A DNA stretch of 20,717 bases from a virus: UHGV virus genome UHGV-1961940. One strand, written 5' to 3'. Position numbers and translations under genes: made by a program. Shown here one piece after another: positions 1-11,014 of this stretch. The notes under the pieces are model-generated. The model made no database searches. It saw only the letters and a list, made by a program, of their open reading frames with translations, and had not been told where the DNA came from. Within the stretch, counting starts at the first letter, position 1; each line of letters opens with the position of its first letter.

Positions 1-684
1 CAGGAAGAAACTGGCAATCTGAGTTTTCGCGCTGGCAATCTGGGATTTTCCATCTTCTAATTTTTTCTTTGCATCTGCAAGTTGTGTTTTCCCGTCTTCC
101 AGTTTCTTCCTGGCATCTTCTAATTGTTTCTTACCATCTTTATATTGTTTCTTTCCGTCCTTAAGTTTCTTTTCACCGTCATCCAGTTCTTTCTTCGCAT
201 CTGCAAGTTTCTCATTGGCTTCTTTTTTGCCGTCTTCCAGTTCTTTCTTTGCATCTGCAAGCTTTTCATTGGCTTCATCCACTACTTCATCATAACGGAT
301 CTGACAACGTTCTTCCTCGATTCCCTTTACGCGTTCCTGCACTCTTTCTATCAGGCTTTCATAAGCATCCGTATAACTGATCAGATTTTGTGCCCCATGA
401 ACCTGCACATAAATCTGTGTAAATACTTCCTGATCAAAATTCTCCGGGAGTACATAAGCAAACCCGTTAACTTCACCTGAACCAAGAGTTGTATTTCCAC
501 GATTATAAGATATATAAAGAGGGCTCTCACCAATACCTACAACTGTATAATCTACATTCTGCAAAAGCTTGCTGTCCCCGTCCTGCTTCAGTGTAATCTG
601 ATCTCCGACTTCGTAACTGTTATTCTCGGCAAATATATAATCCAGAAATATCTCGCCACTCTTCTCGGGAATTCTTCCTTCCAT
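1..684 (-). CDS. FtsX/MacB-family ABC transporter permease-like protein, 5'-truncated fragment (periplasmic-core-like segment followed by coiled-coil repeat region); C-terminal part runs off the window start
   Basis: Minus-strand frame is open from 792 down to position 1 and is absent from the ORF track because it has no stop in the window. My translation reads ...VNETVNQITVMEGRIPEKSGEIFLDYIFAENNSYEVGDQITLKQDGDS... then repeated LADAKKELEDGKK / LKDGKKQ coiled-coil units. The 'EGRxPEKxGEIxLD' motif followed by such repeats matches the architecture of large YhgE/Pip-type FtsX permeases as I remember it. No N-terminal TM helix or ATG upstream of 684 (only GTG at 723/714), and in-frame stops at 793-795 and 802-804. 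Confidence 0.4.
   Translation of the reverse strand, partial: MEGRIPEKSGEIFLDYIFAENNSYEVGDQITLKQDGDSKLLQNVDYTVVGIGESPLYISYNRGNTTLGSGEVNGFAYVLPENFDQEVFTQIYVQVHGAQNLISYTDAYESLIERVQERVKGIEEERCQIRYDEVVDEANEKLADAKKELEDGKKEANEKLADAKKELDDGEKKLKDGKKQYKDGKKQLEDARKKLEDGKTQLADAKKKLEDGKSQIASAKTQIASFFL
55..300. repeat. Imperfect tandem coding repeats (~50-60 nt units) encoding coiled-coil 'L-x-D-A-K-K-x-L-E-D-G-K-K' units
   Basis: Recurring 'tgcatctgcaag' (72-83, 250-261; variant 'cgcatctgcaag' 197-208) and '(g/a)ccgtc(t/a)tccagttctttctt' blocks (~174-222 vs ~226-274). They lie inside the minus-strand permease-like frame. Confidence 0.6.
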
Positions 685-710
685 AACAGTGATCTGGTTT
701 ACTGTTTCAT

Positions 711-1196
711 TCACTGATTCCACGGAGCACTTATCGCAAACCTCAACGACATTGATAGTACCATAGTATTTATAAAGAATATAGCCAACGTATCAAACAG
801 GTTAACCTGGTGGTCGTTGATAGTCCCCATGCATTTAGGATCACGGAACATATCAAAATGAATACCGGATAATCTTTCCATTAGCATAAAGTCATAACTG
901 TAGCAGTTATGGCAGTTCAAAGCTGTTGGTGACCAGTCAGAATTGCCTGTAAGCCAACCTTCCAACTCCGAAAAATCTGCTATGCGAACTTCAAAATCTT
1001 TATAAAGAGTTTTCTTTGCCAGAATGAAGTTCTTAGCCTTTTCTATATCCTCCTCGGAGTAGTGTGTGCGGTCATTTAGAGGAAGGAACAGCATAAAACG
1101 GTTCTTATTCAGCTCTTTAAACAGACCGCAGTGATAATAAAGATCTGGGTCTTCCAGCAAACCGGATGACTCAAAATCGAAAGACCACATACTCAT
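711..1196 (-). CDS. hypothetical protein (161 aa)
   Basis: Track ORF with AAGGAGA about 7 nt upstream of the ATG at 1196. No recognisable motifs. Its 3' end overlaps the permease-like frame in a different frame. Confidence 0.5.
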   Translation of the reverse strand: MSMWSFDFESSGLLEDPDLYYHCGLFKELNKNRFMLFLPLNDRTHYSEEDIEKAKNFILAKKTLYKDFEVRIADFSELEGWLTGNSDWSPTALNCHNCYSYDFMLMERLSGIHFDMFRDPKCMGTINDHQVNLFDTLAIFFINTMVLSMSLRFAISAPWNQ

Positions 1197-1254: not shown

Positions 1255-3333
1255 TTAAAAAGGCGTTTCATCATCCTCAAAACCAGGGACCGGGTCAGAG
1301 GATGGATCATCGTACTGGAGGTCTTCCTGCGTGTCAACAGGCTTAACAGTAGGAGTTACAACCTTATCAGCCACAACCTTGCCCATAGGTGTTTCTACAA
1401 CTGCATGCTCCTGATCCTCAAACATAGCCTGAGGTCTCCAAACAACCTCCCCACCTTCTCCGTCTGTAAACATTTGCATTTCTTTGTCCCAGTACCAATT
1501 ACTGGCATCATGGAACTTACCTGTGTGCGGGTCCATAACCAAAGTGTCAGCAATACCTAGAGTTTTTGCTGGACGGTTTTTAAGACCTACCAGACGGACA
1601 CGTCCACGAGAACGATCCACCATTTCTTCGGCCTCGACACCTATGACTACCCAACTCAACTGTTCAAGCCCAGCCGATCCTCGCAAATTCTCTTTTCGCA
1701 CAGGATACCAGAAAGGTAATGGGTTACCATCCTTGTCCTTAGGGGGCACAATCTCTGTACGTTTGAGGTGAGCGATCACCAAGATAAACACGTTAAACTG
1801 CTTACAAAACGCAGCCAGTTGGGTCATAGCCATGTCCAGTTCTTTTCGCTCATCCTTAACATTAAGCCCTGAAATTACCATGGACAGGTGATCCAGCACA
1901 ATATAACGACAATGGTACAGGCAAACCATTTGCTTAAGCTTGGTAATCAACTCGTCCACTGGAATAGACCCGAAATGTTTGAACACTTTGATTTTTCCAG
2001 CTTTTGCCCATGATTGGTGAATCTCTGCGTGTTCTTGATCAGTTAAAAACTGGCTAGGATCTTCAACAAACTCTTTAACATCAAACCCTAACTGGTTTGC
2101 ATACAAGGAGTTAATTGCTTCCTCTGGGTCCTCCTCAAGATGAATCATGCATAGACGATCATCCTCTTCGTAATCATCAGCCTTTGGACATGTCGGGTCC
2201 ATTAGGTATCTTGCAATACAGTGTTCCAGTTTTTTAGCTACAGTTGTTTTACCGCCTCCTGATGGACCTGTAAGCATTACGAGTGTCCCTTTGTGCAAGC
2301 CTTTTAGCATTTTTTGCAGTTTTGGGAACTCTGCGCTGATATCTACCCCGTTGGAAGTCTTTTTCCGCAAAGATTCGATAGAGAAGTCTTCTAAATCCGA
2401 TACAGCATCCGGTACATACTTAACAGGATGCCGGAACATGTTTACAATATCTTCCAGCTTTTTAGCCTTCAGCATGTCACGGATATCTTTTACACCGTCA
2501 GGATCGTTTACTTCACCAGGGTACTCTACGTGGTAAACGTTATCAGCCATCAAAAATGCTGCGATATTGTGCGTAGCCTCAACACCTTTAATGACGTGTT
2601 TTTGCTTCTCTACCTCGTTAGCTGCATCGTTATCCATTGCCAGCACAACTGTTCCATAGCTACGGATAAACTTCTCATTGTTTGCAAAAGTATCTACTGC
2701 GTTTGCACATCCGCAGTTAATTCCAACAAAAGGTAGGCAGGGTTTTCCTGCCAGATCACCACCGTTGATAACTGCATCGATCCCGTCCTGTACCTCTTTA
2801 GCCCACTGCTTCACCTTTGCCGGGGCTTTAGCGTTGGTGAGAATCCCTTTTACTTGTATCTGATATGCAGCCTGCCATGCTGCAATAACATCACCTTCTC
2901 CCTCGCAAACGTTAATCTGCTTACGGTTGTTGGAAGATGCACACAGCTTTTGACCAAACATCTGGGAGTTAGCCTTTACGATGCCAACAACGGAGAAATG
3001 GCCCCTTTGCTCTTTAGGAATCGTCCAGTCGCGCTTTTTGAAACCGGACAGATTTCCGTAGCGGTCGTAATATGGGAAATATGTTGCAGTGACTGTCACA
3101 CCGTCTTCTTGGGACAATGCTGATCGCACACCAAAATATTGTGCAGCCATCAGACCGATATTTTGTTGTGGGACAGGGACAATTTTAGTATTTTCTAAAA
3201 CAGTCTCTACAGTTTCAACTTCTTTTTCATCACGATAGTCTCGTTTCACACTTCCCCCACTTTTATACTTAGTTGCTTTCGGGTTTGGCTCACCGAAACG
3301 GTTGTATGCAGATGCCATAAATTTACTTCCCAT
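1255..3333 (-). CDS. Bifunctional DNA primase-helicase (TOPRIM primase domain + DnaB/T7 gp4-like hexameric helicase)
   Basis: TOPRIM-like acidic motifs 'CEGEGDVIAAW' and 'VVLAMDNDAANE'. Helicase Walker A 'LTGPSGGGKTT', Walker B 'YIVLDHLSMV', and arginine-finger-like 'RGSAGLEQLSWVVIGVE'. RBS 'taaggagcagaattaATG'. No Cys4 zinc-ribbon seen N-terminal to the TOPRIM. Confidence 0.8.
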   Translation of the reverse strand: MGSKFMASAYNRFGEPNPKATKYKSGGSVKRDYRDEKEVETVETVLENTKIVPVPQQNIGLMAAQYFGVRSALSQEDGVTVTATYFPYYDRYGNLSGFKKRDWTIPKEQRGHFSVVGIVKANSQMFGQKLCASSNNRKQINVCEGEGDVIAAWQAAYQIQVKGILTNAKAPAKVKQWAKEVQDGIDAVINGGDLAGKPCLPFVGINCGCANAVDTFANNEKFIRSYGTVVLAMDNDAANEVEKQKHVIKGVEATHNIAAFLMADNVYHVEYPGEVNDPDGVKDIRDMLKAKKLEDIVNMFRHPVKYVPDAVSDLEDFSIESLRKKTSNGVDISAEFPKLQKMLKGLHKGTLVMLTGPSGGGKTTVAKKLEHCIARYLMDPTCPKADDYEEDDRLCMIHLEEDPEEAINSLYANQLGFDVKEFVEDPSQFLTDQEHAEIHQSWAKAGKIKVFKHFGSIPVDELITKLKQMVCLYHCRYIVLDHLSMVISGLNVKDERKELDMAMTQLAAFCKQFNVFILVIAHLKRTEIVPPKDKDGNPLPFWYPVRKENLRGSAGLEQLSWVVIGVEAEEMVDRSRGRVRLVGLKNRPAKTLGIADTLVMDPHTGKFHDASNWYWDKEMQMFTDGEGGEVVWRPQAMFEDQEHAVVETPMGKVVADKVVTPTVKPVDTQEDLQYDDPSSDPVPGFEDDETPF

Positions 3334-3483
3334 TAATTCTGCTCCTTACTACAGGCTCGTTTGCTAAGAATACAGCTTTTGCCCAGCCAATAACTGCACC
3401 ACCAGACCCGTCAAATAGACTCCACACAACACCTTTGTGGTAGTGTTCTTTGTAGATGAATTTCAATTTGCTGTCTCCTAATG

Positions 3484-3511
3484 CAAAAAGCCCCACCCTT
3501 TCGGGCAGGGC
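3484..3511 (-). terminator. Rho-independent terminator candidate (minus strand)
   Basis: Minus-strand RNA GCCCUGCCC-GAAA-GGGUGGGGC followed by UUUUUG: GC-rich stem with a 2-nt internal mismatch, tetraloop and U-tract. Sits immediately after the stop of ORF 3518-3724. Confidence 0.5.
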
Positions 3512-3517
3512 CTAGTG

Positions 3518-3724
3518 TTAAACCCGGATACCTATTGTATACTCGGTGGATACCAATGTCAAATCTAAATTTAAAATTTCTTGCATCTCATAATATGCGT
3601 CCAGGGTTAGATACATTTCCCCATCCTTTTCTACATACTTGTCCAAGTGCTTGAGGCATTTCGGATAACTATCAAGTGCAGCTTTCAGGCACTCAAACTC
3701 TGTGCTGTTGATGAATCCTTCCAT
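3518..3724 (-). CDS. hypothetical protein (68 aa)
   Basis: Track ORF in the same orientation and tightly packed with its neighbours. No motifs recognised. Confidence 0.45.
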   Translation of the reverse strand: MEGFINSTEFECLKAALDSYPKCLKHLDKYVEKDGEMYLTLDAYYEMQEILNLDLTLVSTEYTIGIRV

Positions 3725-3729
3725 CTTGG

Positions 3730-3996
3730 CTACCCGTTCTTAATGATAGCACTGTAGTGAGATTTAGCTTCCTGAATGCAATGGGTCCAAGCATCAACCT
3801 TCTCTTCGAAAAGTCCAAAGAACTTCTTTTTGGTGAGCTTCAGATTCTTTAAGTGCTTAAGCACTCGGTTGCCGATTACAGCCACATCACGAAACTTAAG
3901 AATCACTTTGTCGATATCCTCGCGACCTATTTTCACAAAACAGGCCTTACACATTTCAGGGGAGGAATAACCAACTTTCCACATAAAATCTGACAT
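3730..3996 (-). CDS. hypothetical protein (88 aa)
   Basis: Track ORF, stop 6 nt before the next start. No motifs recognised. Confidence 0.45.
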   Translation of the reverse strand: MSDFMWKVGYSSPEMCKACFVKIGREDIDKVILKFRDVAVIGNRVLKHLKNLKLTKKKFFGLFEEKVDAWTHCIQEAKSHYSAIIKNG

Positions 3997-4008: not shown

Positions 4009-4311
4009 TTATTCCTTAAAAGCTATGATATCATAGGAACTTGCAGATGATTCTGGTGAAGAATGACTCCAGTCCAGGTCATCAGAATAGTCAGCGTACT
4101 GTGCGCCACTACGCAGTTTGTATTTTACCCACTTACCTGGTGCAGGGTTTTCACCACCTTCCCATACTTCCCAGCCTTCTGGCAGGCCGTCCTGAGCGTA
4201 GTCATCCACCTCACTAATGATCTTAGGGTTTGGCACCAAGATCCCCGCAGGCTCTTCCTTCCGGATAAGTGTCCACACAGCGTATGTGTCTGAGCAGGCG
4301 CATGATAGCAA
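4009..4311 (-). CDS. hypothetical protein (100 aa)
   Basis: Track ORF on the operon strand; Trp/acidic-rich. An antisense ORF (4063-4293 +) and an overlapping one (4125-4322 -) are less likely. Confidence 0.4.
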   Translation of the reverse strand: MLSCACSDTYAVWTLIRKEEPAGILVPNPKIISEVDDYAQDGLPEGWEVWEGGENPAPGKWVKYKLRSGAQYADYSDDLDWSHSSPESSASSYDIIAFKE

Positions 4312-4402: not shown

Positions 4403-4708
4403 TCAGAAACCTCCCACTTCTTCAGCAAATGCAGCTGCTGTCGTCGCTGCATCCAGATAGGACTCTAGTTCACGGGCTGCACGTTTGTAAATTGAGTGGC
4501 GCATATCGTTTGGCAGTTGGTGGGAGTCCACCTCTTCACCGTTGTGGTAAACATGCACATCGGTGATTTGTCTAAATCCGTAACAGTCAACATCAGAATC
4601 CCGGCACTCCGGATCTGGCAACTGAACAACTGCCTGAGCTTCCACAGTAAACATATCGTCAAGTTCGAAATCGATTTCAAAAGTGTATGGTTTATAACGT
4701 TTCATCAT
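4403..4708 (-). CDS. hypothetical protein (101 aa)
   Basis: Track ORF immediately upstream of the methyltransferase stop, same strand. Confidence 0.4.
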   Translation of the reverse strand: MMKRYKPYTFEIDFELDDMFTVEAQAVVQLPDPECRDSDVDCYGFRQITDVHVYHNGEEVDSHQLPNDMRHSIYKRAARELESYLDAATTAAAFAEEVGGF

Positions 4709-4721
4709 TTGATTGTACTCT

Positions 4722-6047
4722 TTATTGATCAGAATTATCTTTCGTAATTAAGGTCTGGGTAAGTTTGTAATAGCGGAAGCCACCGCCACCTTGCCAGCTT
4801 GCAGACTTAGAAATACCACCTTGATCTTCACCATCAATCACTTTTTGCAAGCGAGGGATAATATGGGTATGACAATGATCACCCAGTTCGATCAAGATCC
4901 AACGTCTTTTCATCTTGTGGGCTACAGCAGCAGTAGTTCCCGAACCGCCGAATGAATCCAATACCAAATCACCTTCTCGCGTACACATTTCGAGAATCCG
5001 CTTCAAAAGCGCTTCTGGTTTTTTTCCATTTTTGAAACTAACGCCGCCTTCATTTGCTATTCCATTCCAACTAATGTCTGTCCAAACATCAGTTATTAGT
5101 TCCGCAGGTTGCATCTCACCGTCAATTTCCAAAAGCCTGTTGGAGTAAAAGACCATTTGCCTACCATTTGCGATATAAAATCCTTCAACATCCTCATTCG
5201 GATGTACATAAACCTTATCCCTATCTTTCTTTGACTTCTCGATAGTTTCTTTTCTCTTTATTTTAGCGCCACCACCAATTGCAACAGATTGAAATACACG
5301 TTCTGCATTATCAATTGCGAATTGTGCTAATTCATCATCGAATGTATCAGGCAGTTTTTTCTTGGCTTCTTTTGCATCTTTATAGCCATTGGCCTTTGCA
5401 AACGCATCGGCAATACCGCACCACGTCCAATTTTTATAATGGTCATCCGGGTTTAATAGGTATTTGTTATATCCTGTATCATACCCTTTAGGTATATAGA
5501 TTTTGTTAAGCGGTTTCTGGGTGCGATCTTTTGCATATACAAGCAAAAAGTTTGCTGTGGAGAAAACTGTGGCTCCTGTTGCCTTAAATCCCGAAGGGGA
5601 ATTTGTGGTCATCGATATGGTATTTAACTGATTTGCACGACCAAAAATCTCGTCCATCAAAACTTTTAAATACGCCATTTCGCAATCATCTAAGTGAACG
5701 AATATTACCCCATCATCACTTAGAAGATTACGAATTATTTCTAACCTATCCCTCATTAAGCCCAGCCAAATGGAATGCTCCAGGCTATCATCGTAATGCT
5801 CAAAAGCCCTCCCGGTATTGAATGGTGGGTCTATGTAAACACACTTCACTTTGCCTGCATACTCTTGCTCTAGCGCCTTCAATGCTAATAAGTTATCTCC
5901 AAAAATCAGTTTATTATCAAAAATATCGTTTTCGGTCACTTTCTGGCTGTGGTAAGATTTGCTAGAATCTTCTAACAAAATGTGTGGCTCTAACTTTTTG
6001 CGCTCGTTTTTACCTATCCAGGTAAGTTCTAATTTGGTTTTGCTCAT
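4722..6047 (-). CDS. Site-specific DNA methyltransferase, beta-class (N6-adenine or N4-cytosine; Mod-like / N6_N4_Mtase family); apparently orphan
   Basis: Motif IV 'IDPPFN' near the N-terminus (residue ~73) and AdoMet motif I 'DSFGGSGTTAAVA' near the C-terminus, giving the beta-class permuted order. N-terminal 'MSKTKLELTWIGKNE' is typical of Mod-type methyltransferases. No restriction-endonuclease partner recognised among neighbours. Confidence 0.85.
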   Translation of the reverse strand: MSKTKLELTWIGKNERKKLEPHILLEDSSKSYHSQKVTENDIFDNKLIFGDNLLALKALEQEYAGKVKCVYIDPPFNTGRAFEHYDDSLEHSIWLGLMRDRLEIIRNLLSDDGVIFVHLDDCEMAYLKVLMDEIFGRANQLNTISMTTNSPSGFKATGATVFSTANFLLVYAKDRTQKPLNKIYIPKGYDTGYNKYLLNPDDHYKNWTWCGIADAFAKANGYKDAKEAKKKLPDTFDDELAQFAIDNAERVFQSVAIGGGAKIKRKETIEKSKKDRDKVYVHPNEDVEGFYIANGRQMVFYSNRLLEIDGEMQPAELITDVWTDISWNGIANEGGVSFKNGKKPEALLKRILEMCTREGDLVLDSFGGSGTTAAVAHKMKRRWILIELGDHCHTHIIPRLQKVIDGEDQGGISKSASWQGGGGFRYYKLTQTLITKDNSDQ

Positions 6048-6074
6048 CGTTTGGTGCTCTCCTTAGTTTTTTGT

Positions 6075-6108: not shown

Positions 6109-6492
6109 CTACTCAAGGTCTTCAGAGTCAAGCTCAAAAAGAATCAAACTGTGCATGCCTGCAGATAGATTAACACACCCTGCAACAATAAGGGTCTGAT
6201 AGTAAGGTTCAGCACCCTCAATGTCTTCGTTAAAATCCACAACAAGGTAGTCACCTTTGTTAAAGGTGTATTTGTCCGATGTAAACGCAAAACCTGCCCA
6301 GTCCCCTACTGCAGGGTCTTTATCAGTCACCTTTGTTAACAGTAGATCTTTTTCACGGGATCTTTTAGTAAAATCGTGAATCACAACATCCTTCTCTTCA
6401 GGAGTTGGATTGCCACACACGTAGTTAACTATATTTCTCCACAAACTCATACGTCCCCTCTTCGGCTCTGGTTTCAAAATCTTTCCTGACAA
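6109..6492 (-). CDS. hypothetical protein (<=127 aa; start uncertain)
   Basis: Track ORF begins with TTG at 6492 and overlaps the helicase 3' end by 68 nt. An internal ATG at 6450 would shorten the overlap. Confidence 0.3.
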   Translation of the reverse strand: MSGKILKPEPKRGRMSLWRNIVNYVCGNPTPEEKDVVIHDFTKRSREKDLLLTKVTDKDPAVGDWAGFAFTSDKYTFNKGDYLVVDFNEDIEGAEPYYQTLIVAGCVNLSAGMHSLILFELDSEDLE

Positions 6493-7816
6493 TTTTGTCT
6501 AAGTCAGGGAATGTTGTATTGTAAAACTCTACGACTCGCGGGTCAACAATAATGTCAACTTCTCTTAGTGGACGCAACAAGTTTATTCCTTGTATTGTCT
6601 TAACCCGACTCAAAGCAACATACGTCATCCCAGGAGAGAAAGCTCCGTTCTTTCCAAGGTCCAGGTTGTAACAATCTAGCGTAAGTCCTTGACTTTTATG
6701 AGATGTTACGGCATACCCAGATTTCAGAGGAAGTTGCCTGTATGACCCAATCACTACCCTCTCTATAAACTTCTCCATCTTCCTTTCTGCAATGTTGTAT
6801 CTCTGAGATGGCTTATACTCGTTATTTTCCCACAACCTCTGCTCTATGTCAACCTGTGTTCCATCTTCAAGCTCTACCACCACCGCCTTGTTCTTAAATT
6901 TAACAATTGTGGCACGTGTTCCGTTAACATAATAAGGTACTTTGTGCGTCGGGTCAACATCGTTGGCGGTTATCATAACTTTCATGCCAATTTTCAACTT
7001 CATCTCCTGCTCAACTGGCAGGGTGGAGGGAAACTTACCCTTCATTTCACCAGTGTATACCTTCTCTGGGGCGTTGATGGCATCATAGAACCTTCTGTTC
7101 ACTTCCTCTGCTTGTTTGTTGGTGGCGCAAATTGTGAGAGCGTCTGTTGGTACACCGCCTTTGTAACAGCGAGCATTAAGTTCTGCTACAACCTCTTTTA
7201 TGCGACGACCCTCACGAACACAGTTGAGCATTGTGGCAAATCGAATAGACTCCTGTCGGAACTGGTCTATTAGGGCTATGTTGTGAAGGTCCAGCTCTTT
7301 CCAAGATTCGGTATAGCAACATAGGTCTGTGTGGTAGAAGTTGAAGTAGGCCTCCTTCTCCATAGAAGAGACAACAGGAGGTGCCTGGTAAAAATCGCCA
7401 AACAATATGACCTGTATGCCTCCGAAAGGTTTGTCATTTTTTCGAAGGAAGCGGAGTTTTCTATCCATCTCTATAAACTTATCAGCACGGATCATAGAGA
7501 TTTCATCGATAATTAGGATGGTAAATGCCTTGCTTTTCAAAGGCTTTGCTGTTTTTGCCCTTATTGCAGTCCAGTCAGACTCCATGCTCACACCTGCTGC
7601 AAGATCGAAGGTTCGGTGTGCTGTTGCTCCATTAACGTTTAAAGCGGCTACCCCTGTCGGGGCAACCGTTATGCAAGAGTCTCCATACATTGACTGGATC
7701 ATGTTGATGAGGTACGTCTTCCCACAACCTGCGGGTCCTGAAACGAAGACATTCTCCCCACTCATGATTGCAACAAGGGCAGCATCTGTGCCTACATCAT
7801 ACTGCCCTTTTTCCAT
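6425..7816 (-). CDS. SF1B DNA helicase, Pif1/RecD/Dda-like
   Basis: Walker A 'VSGPAGCGKTY', Walker B 'ILIIDEISM', 'FGDFYQAPPV' motif, 'AVTSHKSQGLT' and 'YVALSRVK' C-terminal motifs characteristic of the Pif1/RecD/Dda family. Confidence 0.85.
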   Translation of the reverse strand: MEKGQYDVGTDAALVAIMSGENVFVSGPAGCGKTYLINMIQSMYGDSCITVAPTGVAALNVNGATAHRTFDLAAGVSMESDWTAIRAKTAKPLKSKAFTILIIDEISMIRADKFIEMDRKLRFLRKNDKPFGGIQVILFGDFYQAPPVVSSMEKEAYFNFYHTDLCCYTESWKELDLHNIALIDQFRQESIRFATMLNCVREGRRIKEVVAELNARCYKGGVPTDALTICATNKQAEEVNRRFYDAINAPEKVYTGEMKGKFPSTLPVEQEMKLKIGMKVMITANDVDPTHKVPYYVNGTRATIVKFKNKAVVVELEDGTQVDIEQRLWENNEYKPSQRYNIAERKMEKFIERVVIGSYRQLPLKSGYAVTSHKSQGLTLDCYNLDLGKNGAFSPGMTYVALSRVKTIQGINLLRPLREVDIIVDPRVVEFYNTTFPDLDKIVRKDFETRAEEGTYEFVEKYS

Positions 7817-9021
7817 TACGCCTCCTCGTAGATAATGTCGATGATGTTACCATCACGGTCAACTACGTATTCAATCGGATCGCCATCTTTGCGTGATTCC
7901 GGTGCTGCTACGATTTCGTAGCGGCATGCACGGCACTTAGCACTGTTGTGTTGGTATGGCACACTAACCACATCCGCAGGGTCAACCATAACCATCATTA
8001 CAGTGCCATAGCCCGCTGCATACTCTTTGCTGGCGCAGTGCAGGCCATAAGAACACGCAGCTTCCGGATCATCTTCTACAAAGTTACGAGGCATGGACAC
8101 AAAAGCACCCTGGTATTGTGGAACTTTACCGCTGTGCCAATCCACCCACCTGCTCCCGTTAAACTGAACCCCCTTATAGCAAATGATTCGACCATCTTCT
8201 GCAACCTGGATGTCATTAGCCTGCATGAAATCGTAGAGCATGTTCACAGATTTTGCAGACGGGTTGCGTAGCAGACGGACAAGGAATTTAACATATCGGT
8301 CGTCCAGTGTTCCATCTACATAATCTTCCTCAATTTTCTTTGCAATGGTGGATCGCATCTCTACACCGTAGTAGTAGAGCTTACCATCTTTCATGATCAG
8401 GTTGTCTGCAAGTGTGGTGAACTCATTCTTGCGTTCCAGCCAGACAAGGATTTCACCAATTGCCTCATCATATTCCTGAACAGAAATATGGTCGAAGACT
8501 TTCTGGTAAACTTCCTCACTTTCGCTGCGGCGAATTTCAAAAATGCCTTCGTTGCAGGTGATCTGGAGGAGTTCCCCGCAAATAACTACCAAAGGCTCGA
8601 TGCTTCGAGACTGTTGCTGAGACACACTGCTCACTACTTCCAGCACCGGATCTTTGACTTCTACTAAAGGTTCTTCTGACTTGATTGCTACCCCAGTGAA
8701 CCCCACACCGTGAACAACACACAGTGGGTATACCACGCCCCAACGTTTAACGGAACCTTCACCTGAATCTAAGATCATGGCGTACTTACCGTTGTCTTCC
8801 AGTCCGTAGCGGAATAAACGGGCCTCTTCGCGGGTTTCAAAATCCTCACGGGTATAGCAGACACTGTCTCGGTCAGGATCAAACAGCTCTGGGGCACCTA
8901 CTGCCAGTGTCCATGTTGTAGTACCTTTCTCAATAGCACATGTGAAACCCTTCTTCTCAAGTTCTGCACGGCGGTCGCGTGCTTCTTTACGAGTTTTGAA
9001 ATGTTCGTAGATGAAAATCAT
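7816..9021 (-). CDS. rIIB: rIIB-like protein
   Basis: C-terminal half aligns by eye to T4 rIIB as I remember it: '...NPSAKSVNMLYDFMQANDIQVAEDG...MPRNFVEDD...SYGLHCASKEYAAGYG...VDPADVVSVPYQHNSAKCRACRYEIV' against the T4 '...NPSQKAVSRLFDFLVANDIEITEDG...MPR...DDD...GLHVCSK...HPRDVVSIP...NDAKMRTCQYEVV' pattern. Lies directly downstream of the rIIA-like gene. Confidence 0.75.
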   Translation of the reverse strand: MIFIYEHFKTRKEARDRRAELEKKGFTCAIEKGTTTWTLAVGAPELFDPDRDSVCYTREDFETREEARLFRYGLEDNGKYAMILDSGEGSVKRWGVVYPLCVVHGVGFTGVAIKSEEPLVEVKDPVLEVVSSVSQQQSRSIEPLVVICGELLQITCNEGIFEIRRSESEEVYQKVFDHISVQEYDEAIGEILVWLERKNEFTTLADNLIMKDGKLYYYGVEMRSTIAKKIEEDYVDGTLDDRYVKFLVRLLRNPSAKSVNMLYDFMQANDIQVAEDGRIICYKGVQFNGSRWVDWHSGKVPQYQGAFVSMPRNFVEDDPEAACSYGLHCASKEYAAGYGTVMMVMVDPADVVSVPYQHNSAKCRACRYEIVAAPESRKDGDPIEYVVDRDGNIIDIIYEEA

Positions 9022-9031
9022 AGCTGTCTCC

Positions 9032-11014
9032 TTATTTGGTGTTATTCTTTGCGTCGATCAGTTCACGGTATTCAATCATAGCAGGAGTGTCCCAATATTT
9101 CAAGCCCACATGCTTCAAAAGTGGATATTTCTTTTCCAATCTTGCAATATAGGCCTTCCCGCACTTGACTCGGTTGGCGATTAAGATTTTGGCACGATGA
9201 TTTAGCTCACTGTGCTTCCACGCGGTGTTACCTTCCCACTTGTGGAAATGTGGCCGATAATTTCCAAAATCTTGCATGGGGATAATTTTCCCTAATTGTC
9301 TATACAGGCTGTCATATGAAGTTTCATTTGCTGCGCGAGTCAGTAAGAATTTCCAAGCATCCTCTTTCAACAAATGTTCCACATTCTTCTCTGTAACATA
9401 CTGGCAATCAGGATCAGTCCAAAGCAGACGAGATTCTGATACCAAGTACAGATCTTCACCTTCAGGAATCTGGAGTGCAGCACGCACACGGTCATAATTT
9501 TGCTGGTAGATGTTACTCAGCTGTCCCAGCCAACAACTTCCACGTTGGATATCACCCTCATAAGGAATGCAGTGCTTAATCTTCTTGAACTCTGCCTTAG
9601 TAATACGTTCACGACGGAAGTAACCATCCTTCTCAAGCTTTTTAACCCAATAACCTGGCTCGTAATGAGTTTTTGTTTCACCTTTCTTCGCAGGTCGGCG
9701 AGGGAGCTCTGATAACAATTTGACAGTATCTGCAAAGAACGGATGGTGTGCCGCCTCTTTAAACTCTTTCACCAGATCCGTGTTCCGGCAATAGAAAACG
9801 TTGCGTCCGGTGATTTCGCTTAAGTAGTTACACTTATTTCGGTTATATTTACCATCTCCGTCGTTAAATACAAGGTATACACCTCGTAAGAACTCCGACT
9901 TTCCGTAACGAGCATAGCCTATGCGGCCTTTATTTAAGCCGCCAGCGAAAATTTCACAATCGCCTAAGTCGCCAAGCCCTGTTTCTTCCCAACGGTTCCA
10001 CATAAAGTTTTTGCCGAAGATGTGTCCGAACACTCCACTATTCTTCATCATTTCACGTGCTTCTGCGGAGGTTTTTGCCGTCTCCAGTTCTGCAATAACT
10101 TCTGCCCCGCGAAGACGTATACCTTCTTTGACAAAGGCCTCCAGGCGATCCTGGAATCCACCGTCGTCATGGCCCTCTATGGTCCATTCACGCCCAGGGT
10201 TAATATTGCAATCCCCAATAGGAATTTCCACGCAGATTGCAGGGTAATCGGTCAATGTCTCCAGGAACTTGGAGCGGTAAGGTTGGTGACCCATCACAAC
10301 ACGGCTCTCATCAGAACTGGTATAACCTTTCAGGATGGTCATTTTCCAGCCATCCTTCTCGTAATGATACTGTGCCTCAACCTTGTCACCTTCTAACATC
10401 TTACTGGTCATAGGATCGGTGACGATGAACGGAAACTTCGCATAGCGTAAGCACGATGCAATAGCAGTGCAATATTTCAGGACATGCTCTTTCTTAACAT
10501 GGAACTGAACTTTTACCCCGTTGTGCTCTTCAGTCTTCCGCTCACGGATCTTGGTAACGTTTGGGATACCCTGATCCAAGAACAATAGATATGTGCTTTC
10601 AACACCATTGTGCACACTGATCACATCGAAAGTGTCCACCATACTGAACGGAGCCTTTGAACCAACACCTTTATTACCTACCAGAGCGTTGCTGTTGCGC
10701 TTGGTTGACTCCCCGAGATTCATGAAAGTGTTGCGGACCATCTCTTCTGACATGCCCAATCCAACGTCCTGCACAAAGAAGTATGGTTCAAGGTCTGTAG
10801 GAGAGTGAATGATGATCGGTACATCACCCCGTCCAGACTCAACATGGGAGTCCACAGCATTGAAGATTGGTTCACGGCAGCTTGCCAGCACCTTATCTTC
10901 GTAAATCCCTTTAATGATTAGCCCAAAAGTCTCTTTGTTCAGAGAAATTGAGCCCCTGGTGACCTCCATATTTCCGGTCAGCACTGCTTTAGTTTCATTA
11001 CTGTTTACAATCAT
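9032..11014 (-). CDS. rIIA: rIIA-like protein with N-terminal GHKL (histidine-kinase-like) ATPase domain
   Basis: GHKL boxes: N-box 'REPIFNAVDSH', G1 'VQDVGLGMS', G2 'VGNKGVGSKAPFSMVDTFDVISVHNG'. These resemble the T4 rIIA N-terminal 'RELITNMIDAH...DFGPGMS...[25 protein letters not shown]' as recalled. Followed by rIIB-like gene in the canonical order. Confidence 0.75.
   Translation of the reverse strand: MIVNSNETKAVLTGNMEVTRGSISLNKETFGLIIKGIYEDKVLASCREPIFNAVDSHVESGRGDVPIIIHSPTDLEPYFFVQDVGLGMSEEMVRNTFMNLGESTKRNSNALVGNKGVGSKAPFSMVDTFDVISVHNGVESTYLLFLDQGIPNVTKIRERKTEEHNGVKVQFHVKKEHVLKYCTAIASCLRYAKFPFIVTDPMTSKMLEGDKVEAQYHYEKDGWKMTILKGYTSSDESRVVMGHQPYRSKFLETLTDYPAICVEIPIGDCNINPGREWTIEGHDDGGFQDRLEAFVKEGIRLRGAEVIAELETAKTSAEAREMMKNSGVFGHIFGKNFMWNRWEETGLGDLGDCEIFAGGLNKGRIGYARYGKSEFLRGVYLVFNDGDGKYNRNKCNYLSEITGRNVFYCRNTDLVKEFKEAAHHPFFADTVKLLSELPRRPAKKGETKTHYEPGYWVKKLEKDGYFRRERITKAEFKKIKHCIPYEGDIQRGSCWLGQLSNIYQQNYDRVRAALQIPEGEDLYLVSESRLLWTDPDCQYVTEKNVEHLLKEDAWKFLLTRAANETSYDSLYRQLGKIIPMQDFGNYRPHFHKWEGNTAWKHSELNHRAKILIANRVKCGKAYIARLEKKYPLLKHVGLKYWDTPAMIEYRELIDAKNNTK

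Follow-up and report, generated by a model that had tools for sequence, protein, structure and literature searches.

A Vequintavirus orphan DNA methyltransferase with the features of a captured 5' fragment of an Escherichia coli type III-like mod gene

The window analysed here is the whole 20,717-nucleotide stretch of the virus genome UHGV-1961940, and the element under study is a gene on its minus strand for a DNA methyltransferase (MTase). A sequence-only reading had described this gene as an orphan beta-class methyltransferase of the replication module with a likely anti-restriction role. According to the open reading frame (ORF) listing, one ORF occupied exactly 4722..6047 on the minus strand, with an ATG start, a TAA stop and a product of 441 amino acids (aa). 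The ORF was the orthologue of rV5 gp230, from which it differed at 2 of 441 residues (P21Q, I93V), and was 98% identical to bas51_0070, the orthologue in phage Bas51. Motif IV, the DPPF motif that binds the flipped adenine, was located at aa 73-76 (window 5820-5831, minus strand), and motif I, the AdoMet-binding FGGSGTT, was located at aa 366-372 (window 4932-4952, minus strand). The DPPF columns were invariant in the family alignment, as were the F, G, S, G, T and T of motif I. In the EcoP15I Mod subunit, the equivalent DPPY holds the flipped adenine (PMC4490356). The target-recognition domain (TRD) split the MTase core in two at approximately aa 179-320 (window 5088-5513, minus strand). This position agreed with the EcoP15I Mod plan, which consists of an N-terminal domain (NTD, aa 14-60), an MTase core (62-262 and 390-516), a TRD (263-384) and a C-terminal domain (CTD, 539-644) (PMC4490356), and the pLDDT of the AF2 model exceeded 90 there.

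The Pfam family PF01555 (N6_N4_Mtase) matched aa 67-393 with 147 bits against a gathering cut-off of 26.7 bits (E 9.2e-43). The PADLOC MTase_III model PDLC03636 matched with an E value of 3.5e-202, and only positions 2-443 of the 575 profile positions were covered. The first part of the protein (aa 2-88) aligned with EcoP15I Mod residues 52-138. The AF2 model had a pLDDT of 82.5 and a pTM of 0.79, and its top fold match in the PDB was EcoP15I Mod (E 4e-20). The best solved relatives by both sequence and predicted fold were the Mod proteins of H. pylori (6K0W), EcoP15I (4ZCF) and Mbo45V (7DSU). The position of motif IV N-terminal to motif I within a single ORF is the permuted order of the beta class, and together with the Pfam match, whose strength far exceeds chance, it bore out the class assignment of the sequence-only reading; the Mod-like N-terminus proposed there was likewise recovered in the EcoP15I alignment. 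The DPPF motif and the Mod relatives suggest that N6-adenine is the methylated base. In GenBank, orthologues in more than 80 phage genomes are labelled 'putative adenine methyltransferase' or 'type III R-M methylation subunit' (R-M, restriction-modification), and the rV5 record describes the gene as 'similar to amino terminus of Azoarcus adenine specific DNA methylase'.

The relatives of the protein were searched for among 5.8 billion proteins. A chromosomal Mod of E. coli, WP_024226319 (567 aa), was 96% identical at the amino acid level across the entire phage protein. The other homologues in this search numbered in the hundreds, were 560-600 aa long, belonged to many phyla and were 58-76% identical. 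The DNA of the phage gene was 94-95% identical to that of the E. coli mod gene over window 4713-6060, which takes in 13 nt ahead of the ATG and reaches slightly past the phage stop codon. Only 2 of 142 TRD residues differed between the phage protein and the E. coli Mod; the same recognition sequence would therefore be expected for both enzymes. WP_024226319 is presumed from this similarity to be the donor or a close relative of the donor. The E. coli copy was present in 24-29 of 5426 complete genomes (~0.5%), and its location was chromosomal every time.

The borders of the bacterial segment were read at base level by comparison with AlexBoehm (Bas56), from which the methyltransferase is cleanly absent. 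In that phage, the gp229 and gp231 homologues lie 60 bp apart, and similarity to the window stops at 4710 and restarts at 6044. The upstream capture junction was placed at 6044..6060 (minus strand), where E. coli homology reaches 6060 and AlexBoehm homology starts from 6044. The downstream junction, which includes the stop codon, was placed at 4710..4735 (minus strand), where E. coli homology ends at approximately 4713 and phage sequence continues from 4710. The captured segment ran from 13 nt before the start codon to approximately codon 450 of the bacterial mod. It separates the ATG of the gp229 homologue from its ribosome-binding site (CTAAGGAG...), and this site, which belongs to the gp229 homologue in AlexBoehm, now serves the methyltransferase. 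At the 3' end, the loss of approximately 13 nt relative to the E. coli mod caused a frameshift, through which KDKFGLEVINKEYN became KDNSDQ followed by a stop. The host ...KDKFGLEVINKEYNPEM... was thereby replaced by ...KDNSDQ-stop in the phage, and homology ended a few bases further on, before the gp229 ATG. Short common strings were present at both joints (AGCAC..AA(A/C)GATGA and AAATG). On these sequence comparisons, the phage gene is a captured 5' fragment of a type III-like bacterial mod, of which it comprises the first three quarters.

The part left behind corresponded to the domain that contacts Res in the characterized enzyme. In EcoP15I, the CTD (aa 539-644) makes extensive contacts with Res, and Mod2 by itself is a competent methyltransferase (PMC4490356). 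In a profile of 39 full-length homologues, GGGFRYYKLAPSLL aligned to EcoP15I residues 503-517; hence, the phage protein terminates in the linker between MTase core and CTD. The predicted structure of the full-length E. coli Mod had an additional alpha/beta domain at 443-554, and the Foldseek alignment against 4ZCF_A comprised 658 columns for the E. coli Mod and 530 for the phage protein (128 fewer). The bacterial homologues were ~126-150 residues longer than the phage protein, and of the four-domain Mod plan (NTD, MTase, TRD and CTD) the CTD was missing from it. Moreover, a second, unrelated phage-like contig (L011, with NrdD/G, PhoH, ClpP and Dam) carried an 84%-identical copy at a different genomic site, and this copy was also cut directly after GGGGF(H/R)Y, at the same domain boundary. 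The Mod cores of genuine Campylobacter phages were 38-40% identical, and their alignment was confined to aa 45-426.

The partner nuclease was also missing. No res gene was found within the window in the PADLOC and Pfam scans, and no Res-like gene was annotated across the complete genome of the close relative Bas51. In PADLOC, no nuclease or Res model was matched by any of the six flanking small ORFs (3323-3496, 3518-3724, 3730-3996, 4009-4311, 4403-4708 and 6109-6492), and a Pfam scan of four of them gave zero matches. The earlier claims that the gene is an orphan and that no endonuclease partner lies among the small flanking ORFs therefore held, and an adjacent cognate restriction subunit, which was looked for, was found neither in the window nor in the Bas51 annotation. 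Two of the features that define Mod subunits, a CTD and a partner res gene, are missing, and the protein is therefore best filed, as judged from its sequence, as a phage orphan methyltransferase of Mod ancestry. A weak phrog_1573 'methyltransferase' match had raised the 101-aa ORF at 4403-4708 as the missing Mod C-terminus. This candidate was rejected; the ORF had zero similarity to full-length Mod and was also present in AlexBoehm, which has no methyltransferase.

The bacterial relatives were found in a conserved context. In E. coli 2014C-3011 (CP027591), mod was located in an island beside tRNA-Sec (selC) with integrase remnants, in the order mad1-like helix-turn-helix protein, 964-aa DrmD-like SNF2 helicase, AbiD, hypothetical protein, Mod and 912-aa Res. 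The Res directly after Mod was of the ResIII/REase_III type (PADLOC E 9e-191; Pfam ResIII E 2e-20). The SNF2...Mod-Res arrangement was also present in Acinetobacter, Pseudomonas aeruginosa, Aeribacillus and a metagenomic bacterium. Because the Mod-Res pairing recurs in diverse bacteria, the bacterial family is a restriction-linked, type III-like Mod family, and the direction of transfer was from bacterium to phage. The DrmD-like SNF2 neighbour had also raised ARMADA II or DISARM as the donor, which was rejected; the E. coli locus has a ResIII/REase_III protein. The effector of ARMADA II is YprA/DUF1998 (PMC13463889).

The bacterial relatives thus shared a conserved locus made up of three parts, a DrmD-like SNF2, Mod and Res, with the SNF2-Mod-Res loci at L006 4129-13478, L007 3366-12571, L013 4143-11433, L014 1-11538 and in L015. 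The content of the gap between SNF2 and Mod varied: AbiD and a hypothetical protein in E. coli, AAA_21 and DUF4276 in Acinetobacter, an SMC-like ATPase and AIPR in P. aeruginosa, and Kiwa and M78/DUF4411 in the metagenomic bacterium, while the gap was empty in Aeribacillus. From its gene content, the gap looks like a cargo hotspot within a type III-like system.

The gene was present in 86 of 117 related phage records (~74%), and the remaining quarter or so lacked it. The ratio of nonsynonymous to synonymous substitution rates (dN/dS) was 0.083 for the phage copy against that of E. coli (dS 0.19) and 0.09-0.10 when phage copies were compared with one another. Family-conserved residues, defined as positions in the phage protein at least 97% conserved across 103 full-length homologues, were retained at 105 of 106 positions. 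Of 87 Vequintavirus-like records with at least 90% identity, the 20 among the matches listed all kept an unbroken reading frame of 441 aa, with 440-441 residues aligned. These values point to purifying selection on the gene. The TRD was conserved across the whole bacterial family, with 35-64% identity to the phage protein in 20-residue windows. Such conservation of the TRD across a family is unusual for type III Mods. Truncated or split mod copies were also seen in decayed bacterial loci.

Methylation data were available for Bas51 (WalterGehring, MZ501111), for which a 2025 study gave nanopore calls of N6-methyladenine (m6A) (PMC12548924). The wild-type calls were 1405 in GATC, 509 in GTAC and 576 in other contexts, and those of the T83P methyltransferase mutant were 35, 511 and 349, respectively (PMC12548924 S4 Table). 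The Bas51 genome contains 703 GATC and 258 GTAC sites, which correspond to 1406 and 516 adenines. Because the calls approximately match these numbers, GATC and GTAC are both essentially fully methylated in Bas51 virion DNA. Furthermore, GTAC was methylated on both strands (509-511 of 516 adenines) without dependence on the GATC enzyme, and the GTAC mark was not attributed to any gene in that study (PMC12548924). The GTAC sites and the ~349 other sites could be written by bas51_0070, the orthologue of the ORF described here, or by bas51_0200, a 272-aa protein with an NPPF motif and weak methyltransferase similarity. The ORF was also considered as the Bas51 N6 adenine methyltransferase that writes GATC and triggers the retrons Asa1 and Squ1 (PMC12548924), and this identification was rejected. 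D69G, D79G and T83P, the mutations published, are incompatible with the ORF, which has C69, G79 and E83 at these positions, and they fit bas51_0176, a 177-aa protein at another locus. No characterized close homologue that would give the recognition site was found, and the TRDs of the PDB relatives were unrelated. The literature on a Vequintavirus methylome or on GTAC m6A in E. coli gave nothing usable.

Vequintaviruses were found to carry up to four putative DNA methyltransferases, namely, the Mod-like protein, the 177-aa GATC enzyme, the 272-aa NPPF protein and a Dcm-like protein; the loci concerned were L005 8091-8624, L005 24069-24887 and L002 2399-3163. Despite these enzymes, Vequintaviruses have been reported as highly restriction-sensitive (PMC8594841).

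On the whole of this evidence, the ORF is considered, with moderate confidence, to encode an active stand-alone N6-adenine DNA methyltransferase that was captured from a host type III-like R-M system and whose self-methylation pre-immunises the progeny. The captured 5' piece of mod retains the N-terminal region, the catalytic core and the TRD and came without the CTD and res. The methyltransferase would be expressed along with the phage replication genes, and the phage genome would be methylated at the sequence recognised by the host Mod. Progeny virions would then be pre-marked as 'self', whatever the producing host, on meeting a Mod-Res cell, and the loss of the CTD and res would leave modification without restriction. 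Such self-marking is the classical role of orphan methyltransferases in phages. We infer catalytic activity, host-like specificity and restriction protection of the phage enzyme from the sequence relationships described above. The m6A in Bas51 virion DNA exceeded what the GATC methyltransferase explains, which is consistent with this proposal. The anti-restriction role proposed in the sequence-only reading is likewise supported and may now be tied to a specific E. coli Mod-Res system.

The following points weigh against this proposal. The m6A of Bas51 beyond GATC could stem from bas51_0200, the other putative methyltransferase. The Vequintavirinae are 'exceptionally susceptible' to all six R-M systems tested with the BASEL collection, two type III systems included (PMC8594841). 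Because of this sensitivity, any protection of the progeny must be system-specific, and the benefit of the gene would be narrow rather than broad. Moreover, only ~0.5% of complete E. coli genomes hold a near-identical host system, and the gene is kept in ~74% of the relatives; the rarity of the donor against the strong constraint hints at a wider or different benefit.

A benefit of this latter kind is the subject of the foremost alternative, which we regard as possible, although rather unlikely. An active methyltransferase would hide a short, frequent site such as GTAC from other enzymes that restrict at that site, or its mark would serve replication, packaging or gene regulation. The retention in 86 of 117 relatives at a dN/dS of ~0.09, with the donor system in so few E. 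coli genomes, and the location of the gene in the replication module are consistent with such a role. The methylation of 258 of 258 Bas51 GTAC sites independently of the GATC enzyme fits as well, and the conservation of the TRD across bacterial phyla suggests one fixed specificity. However, GTAC is equally writable by bas51_0200, and the sequence holds no indication of a regulatory role. Type III Mods are known to recognise asymmetric sites, and the 95% identity to a restriction-linked mod points to the donor system as the selective agent.

The truncation itself can be interpreted in other ways. As a dominant-negative mimic, the shortened Mod would occupy recognition sites or heterodimerise with the host Mod and poison Mod2Res1 assembly, so that Res would be uncoupled from site recognition and unmethylated DNA would be protected already in the first infection. 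Such anti-restriction by subunit mimicry is improbable in our judgement. In its favour are the removal of precisely the CTD, which took place independently in two phage lineages, the retention of the N-terminal region and core that form the EcoP15I Mod dimer interface, the near-identical TRD and the 96% identity of the protein to the host Mod. Yet purifying selection has preserved every catalytic and AdoMet motif, although a pure decoy could do without them, and the truncation point coincides with the recombination breakpoint, so that it may just reflect the capture of a fragment. The dimer interface, formed by the N-terminal region and core, is also large (~4000 square angstroms in EcoP15I; PMC4490356), and subunit exchange would likely be slow. 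A decaying gene fragment, carried as a neutral passenger without function, would account for a truncated piece of a longer gene with a stop codon from a frameshift, for its absence from about a quarter of the relatives with no obvious harm and for the truncated or split copies known in decayed bacterial loci. This interpretation appears very improbable against a dN/dS of 0.08-0.10, the 105 of 106 conserved residues, the frame intact in the 20 records listed and the confidently predicted fold. A complete restriction system of the phage, with the ORF as its modification component and Res encoded elsewhere, is scarcely credible: the helicase gene at 6425-7816, two genes upstream of the methyltransferase, could at first sight be taken for such a partner, but it is SF1 Pif1/Dda-like rather than ResIII, the complete Bas51 genome has no annotated Res-like gene, and the phage protein is without the Res-binding domain. 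Capture of an active methyltransferase for self-methylation is thus retained as the preferred explanation.

The protein was compared with known systems. The type III Mods (EcoP15I 4ZCF, 6K0W and Mbo45V 7DSU) were the best matches in sequence and fold, and they share the beta-class N6-adenine type, the TRD between motifs IV-VIII and X/I-III and the aligned N-terminal segment. However, identity to them was only ~20%, and the phage protein stops at the MTase/CTD linker and has no CTD and no res partner. The E. coli Mod WP_024226319 is far closer in protein, DNA and TRD sequence, but the host gene has a 126-aa C-terminal domain and an adjacent 912-aa Res, and the phage copy has neither. As a precedent, lactococcal phage phi50 acquired the amino domain of the LlaI methylase (pTR2030), that is, a lytic phage captured the functional part of a host R-M methylase, and its consequent escape from the LlaI system was shown experimentally, according to the account cited in PMC4190342. 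The phi50 case, as described there, concerns a type II-A methylase and a Gram-positive host, whereas the source here is type III-like and protection is proposed from sequence. Phage orphan methyltransferases such as T4 Dam, the 936-phage MTases and bas51_0176 are likewise products of phage genes that lack a nuclease partner and methylate virion DNA (PMC4190342; PMC12548924), but they differ from the Mod-like enzyme in family and size. In particular, bas51_0176 is a 177-aa NPPY enzyme and, unlike the Mod-like gene, the reported retron trigger of Bas51 (PMC12548924).

The gene has been annotated since the rV5 genome deposit, and the capture of host methylases by phages is known. The named donor system, the base-level junctions, the loss of specifically the Res-docking domain, the evidence for constraint and the possible link to the GTAC mark are new. 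Although phages often carry orphan methyltransferases, it is seldom clear where these came from or what they recognise. In the present case, the donor can be identified as a Mod-Res locus with an SNF2 partner that lies in a selC island and is rare in E. coli, and the junctions can be read per base. A 'putative adenine methyltransferase' label in more than 80 phage genomes is turned into a directly testable prediction, namely, that Vequintaviruses with the gene (Bas48, Bas51) would ignore Mod-Res defence and that Bas56, which lacks it, would be restricted. For phage therapy with rV5-like phages, one concrete host-range determinant would thereby be identified.

The surroundings of the gene were those of a Vequintavirus. 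In a megablast of the whole window against phage records, coverage was 96% and identity was 99.0% to the Escherichia phages ime, HdK5, nimi and CarlMeissner (Bas48), and on this similarity the window can be assigned to Vequintavirus, i.e., an rV5-like coliphage (myovirus). The large genes were all on the minus strand: rIIA at 9032-11014, rIIB at 7816-9021 and the superfamily 1 (SF1) helicase of the Pif1/Dda type, which is not Res, at 6425-7816. The small phage gene upstream of the methyltransferase (6109-6492, minus strand) was the rV5 gp231 homologue (phrog_11869) and encoded no nuclease. The downstream gene (4403-4708, minus strand, 101 aa) was the rV5 gp229 homologue (phrog_4240), and small ORFs followed at 4009-4311, 3730-3996, 3518-3724 and 3323-3496. 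Beyond these small genes, the primase/helicase was located at 1255-3333 (minus strand), with the start of the DNA polymerase gene next in order. The methyltransferase thus sits between the Pif1/Dda helicase and the primase/helicase, near the DNA polymerase start, in accordance with the replication module named earlier. An Rfam scan of the window found nothing, and a promoter and terminator scan was not above the shuffled expectation.

Two adjacent genes of the window were damaged. A remnant of a Dcm-like C5 methyltransferase (rV5 gp226, 254 aa) was located at 3323..3466 within the ORF 3323-3496 (minus strand), with 47 aa left. The catalytic core was lost through an in-frame deletion of 621 bp, which lies between two imperfect direct repeats of 16 bp, AGCTTTTGCCCAG(C/T)CA, and has its junction at 3373-3389. 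The flanks were ~626 bp further apart in all 30 related phages listed (of 117 matches), as for an intact gene, and the deletion junction was present in one other record only, MG065646, where it falls at the extreme end. Retron Eco1 has been reported to be triggered by phage cytosine methyltransferases (PMC12916289), and the gp226 deletion could be a retron escape lesion. The rV5 gp227 homologue (160 aa, phrog_12900) had a 4-bp deletion (CCCC) at ~3730-3740 relative to rV5 and Bas51, which caused a frameshift and an 88-aa product; the ORFs 3730-3996 and 3518-3724 lie here. The inactivation of both genes in the window genome could be real, or it could reflect a sequencing or assembly error.

The first 780 nt of the window had no DNA similarity to any phage record, distant mode included, and the Vequintavirus homology (DNA polymerase N-terminus) began abruptly at 781. 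The minus strand was open from ~760 to the window edge and encoded a coiled-coil LADAKKELEDGKK repeat protein with a weak MacB_PCD match (E 0.006). Either the assembly is chimeric at this point, or foreign DNA has been inserted in window 1-780 and interrupts the polymerase gene. Lastly, 16 'Campylobacter phage' GenBank records numbered MG0656xx (e.g., MG065646, MG065647 and MG065635; host C. jejuni) were ~96-98% identical to rV5-like coliphages across this region and unrelated to genuine Campylobacter phages of the CP81 type; judged by their sequences, they are probably mislabelled or contaminant genomes.

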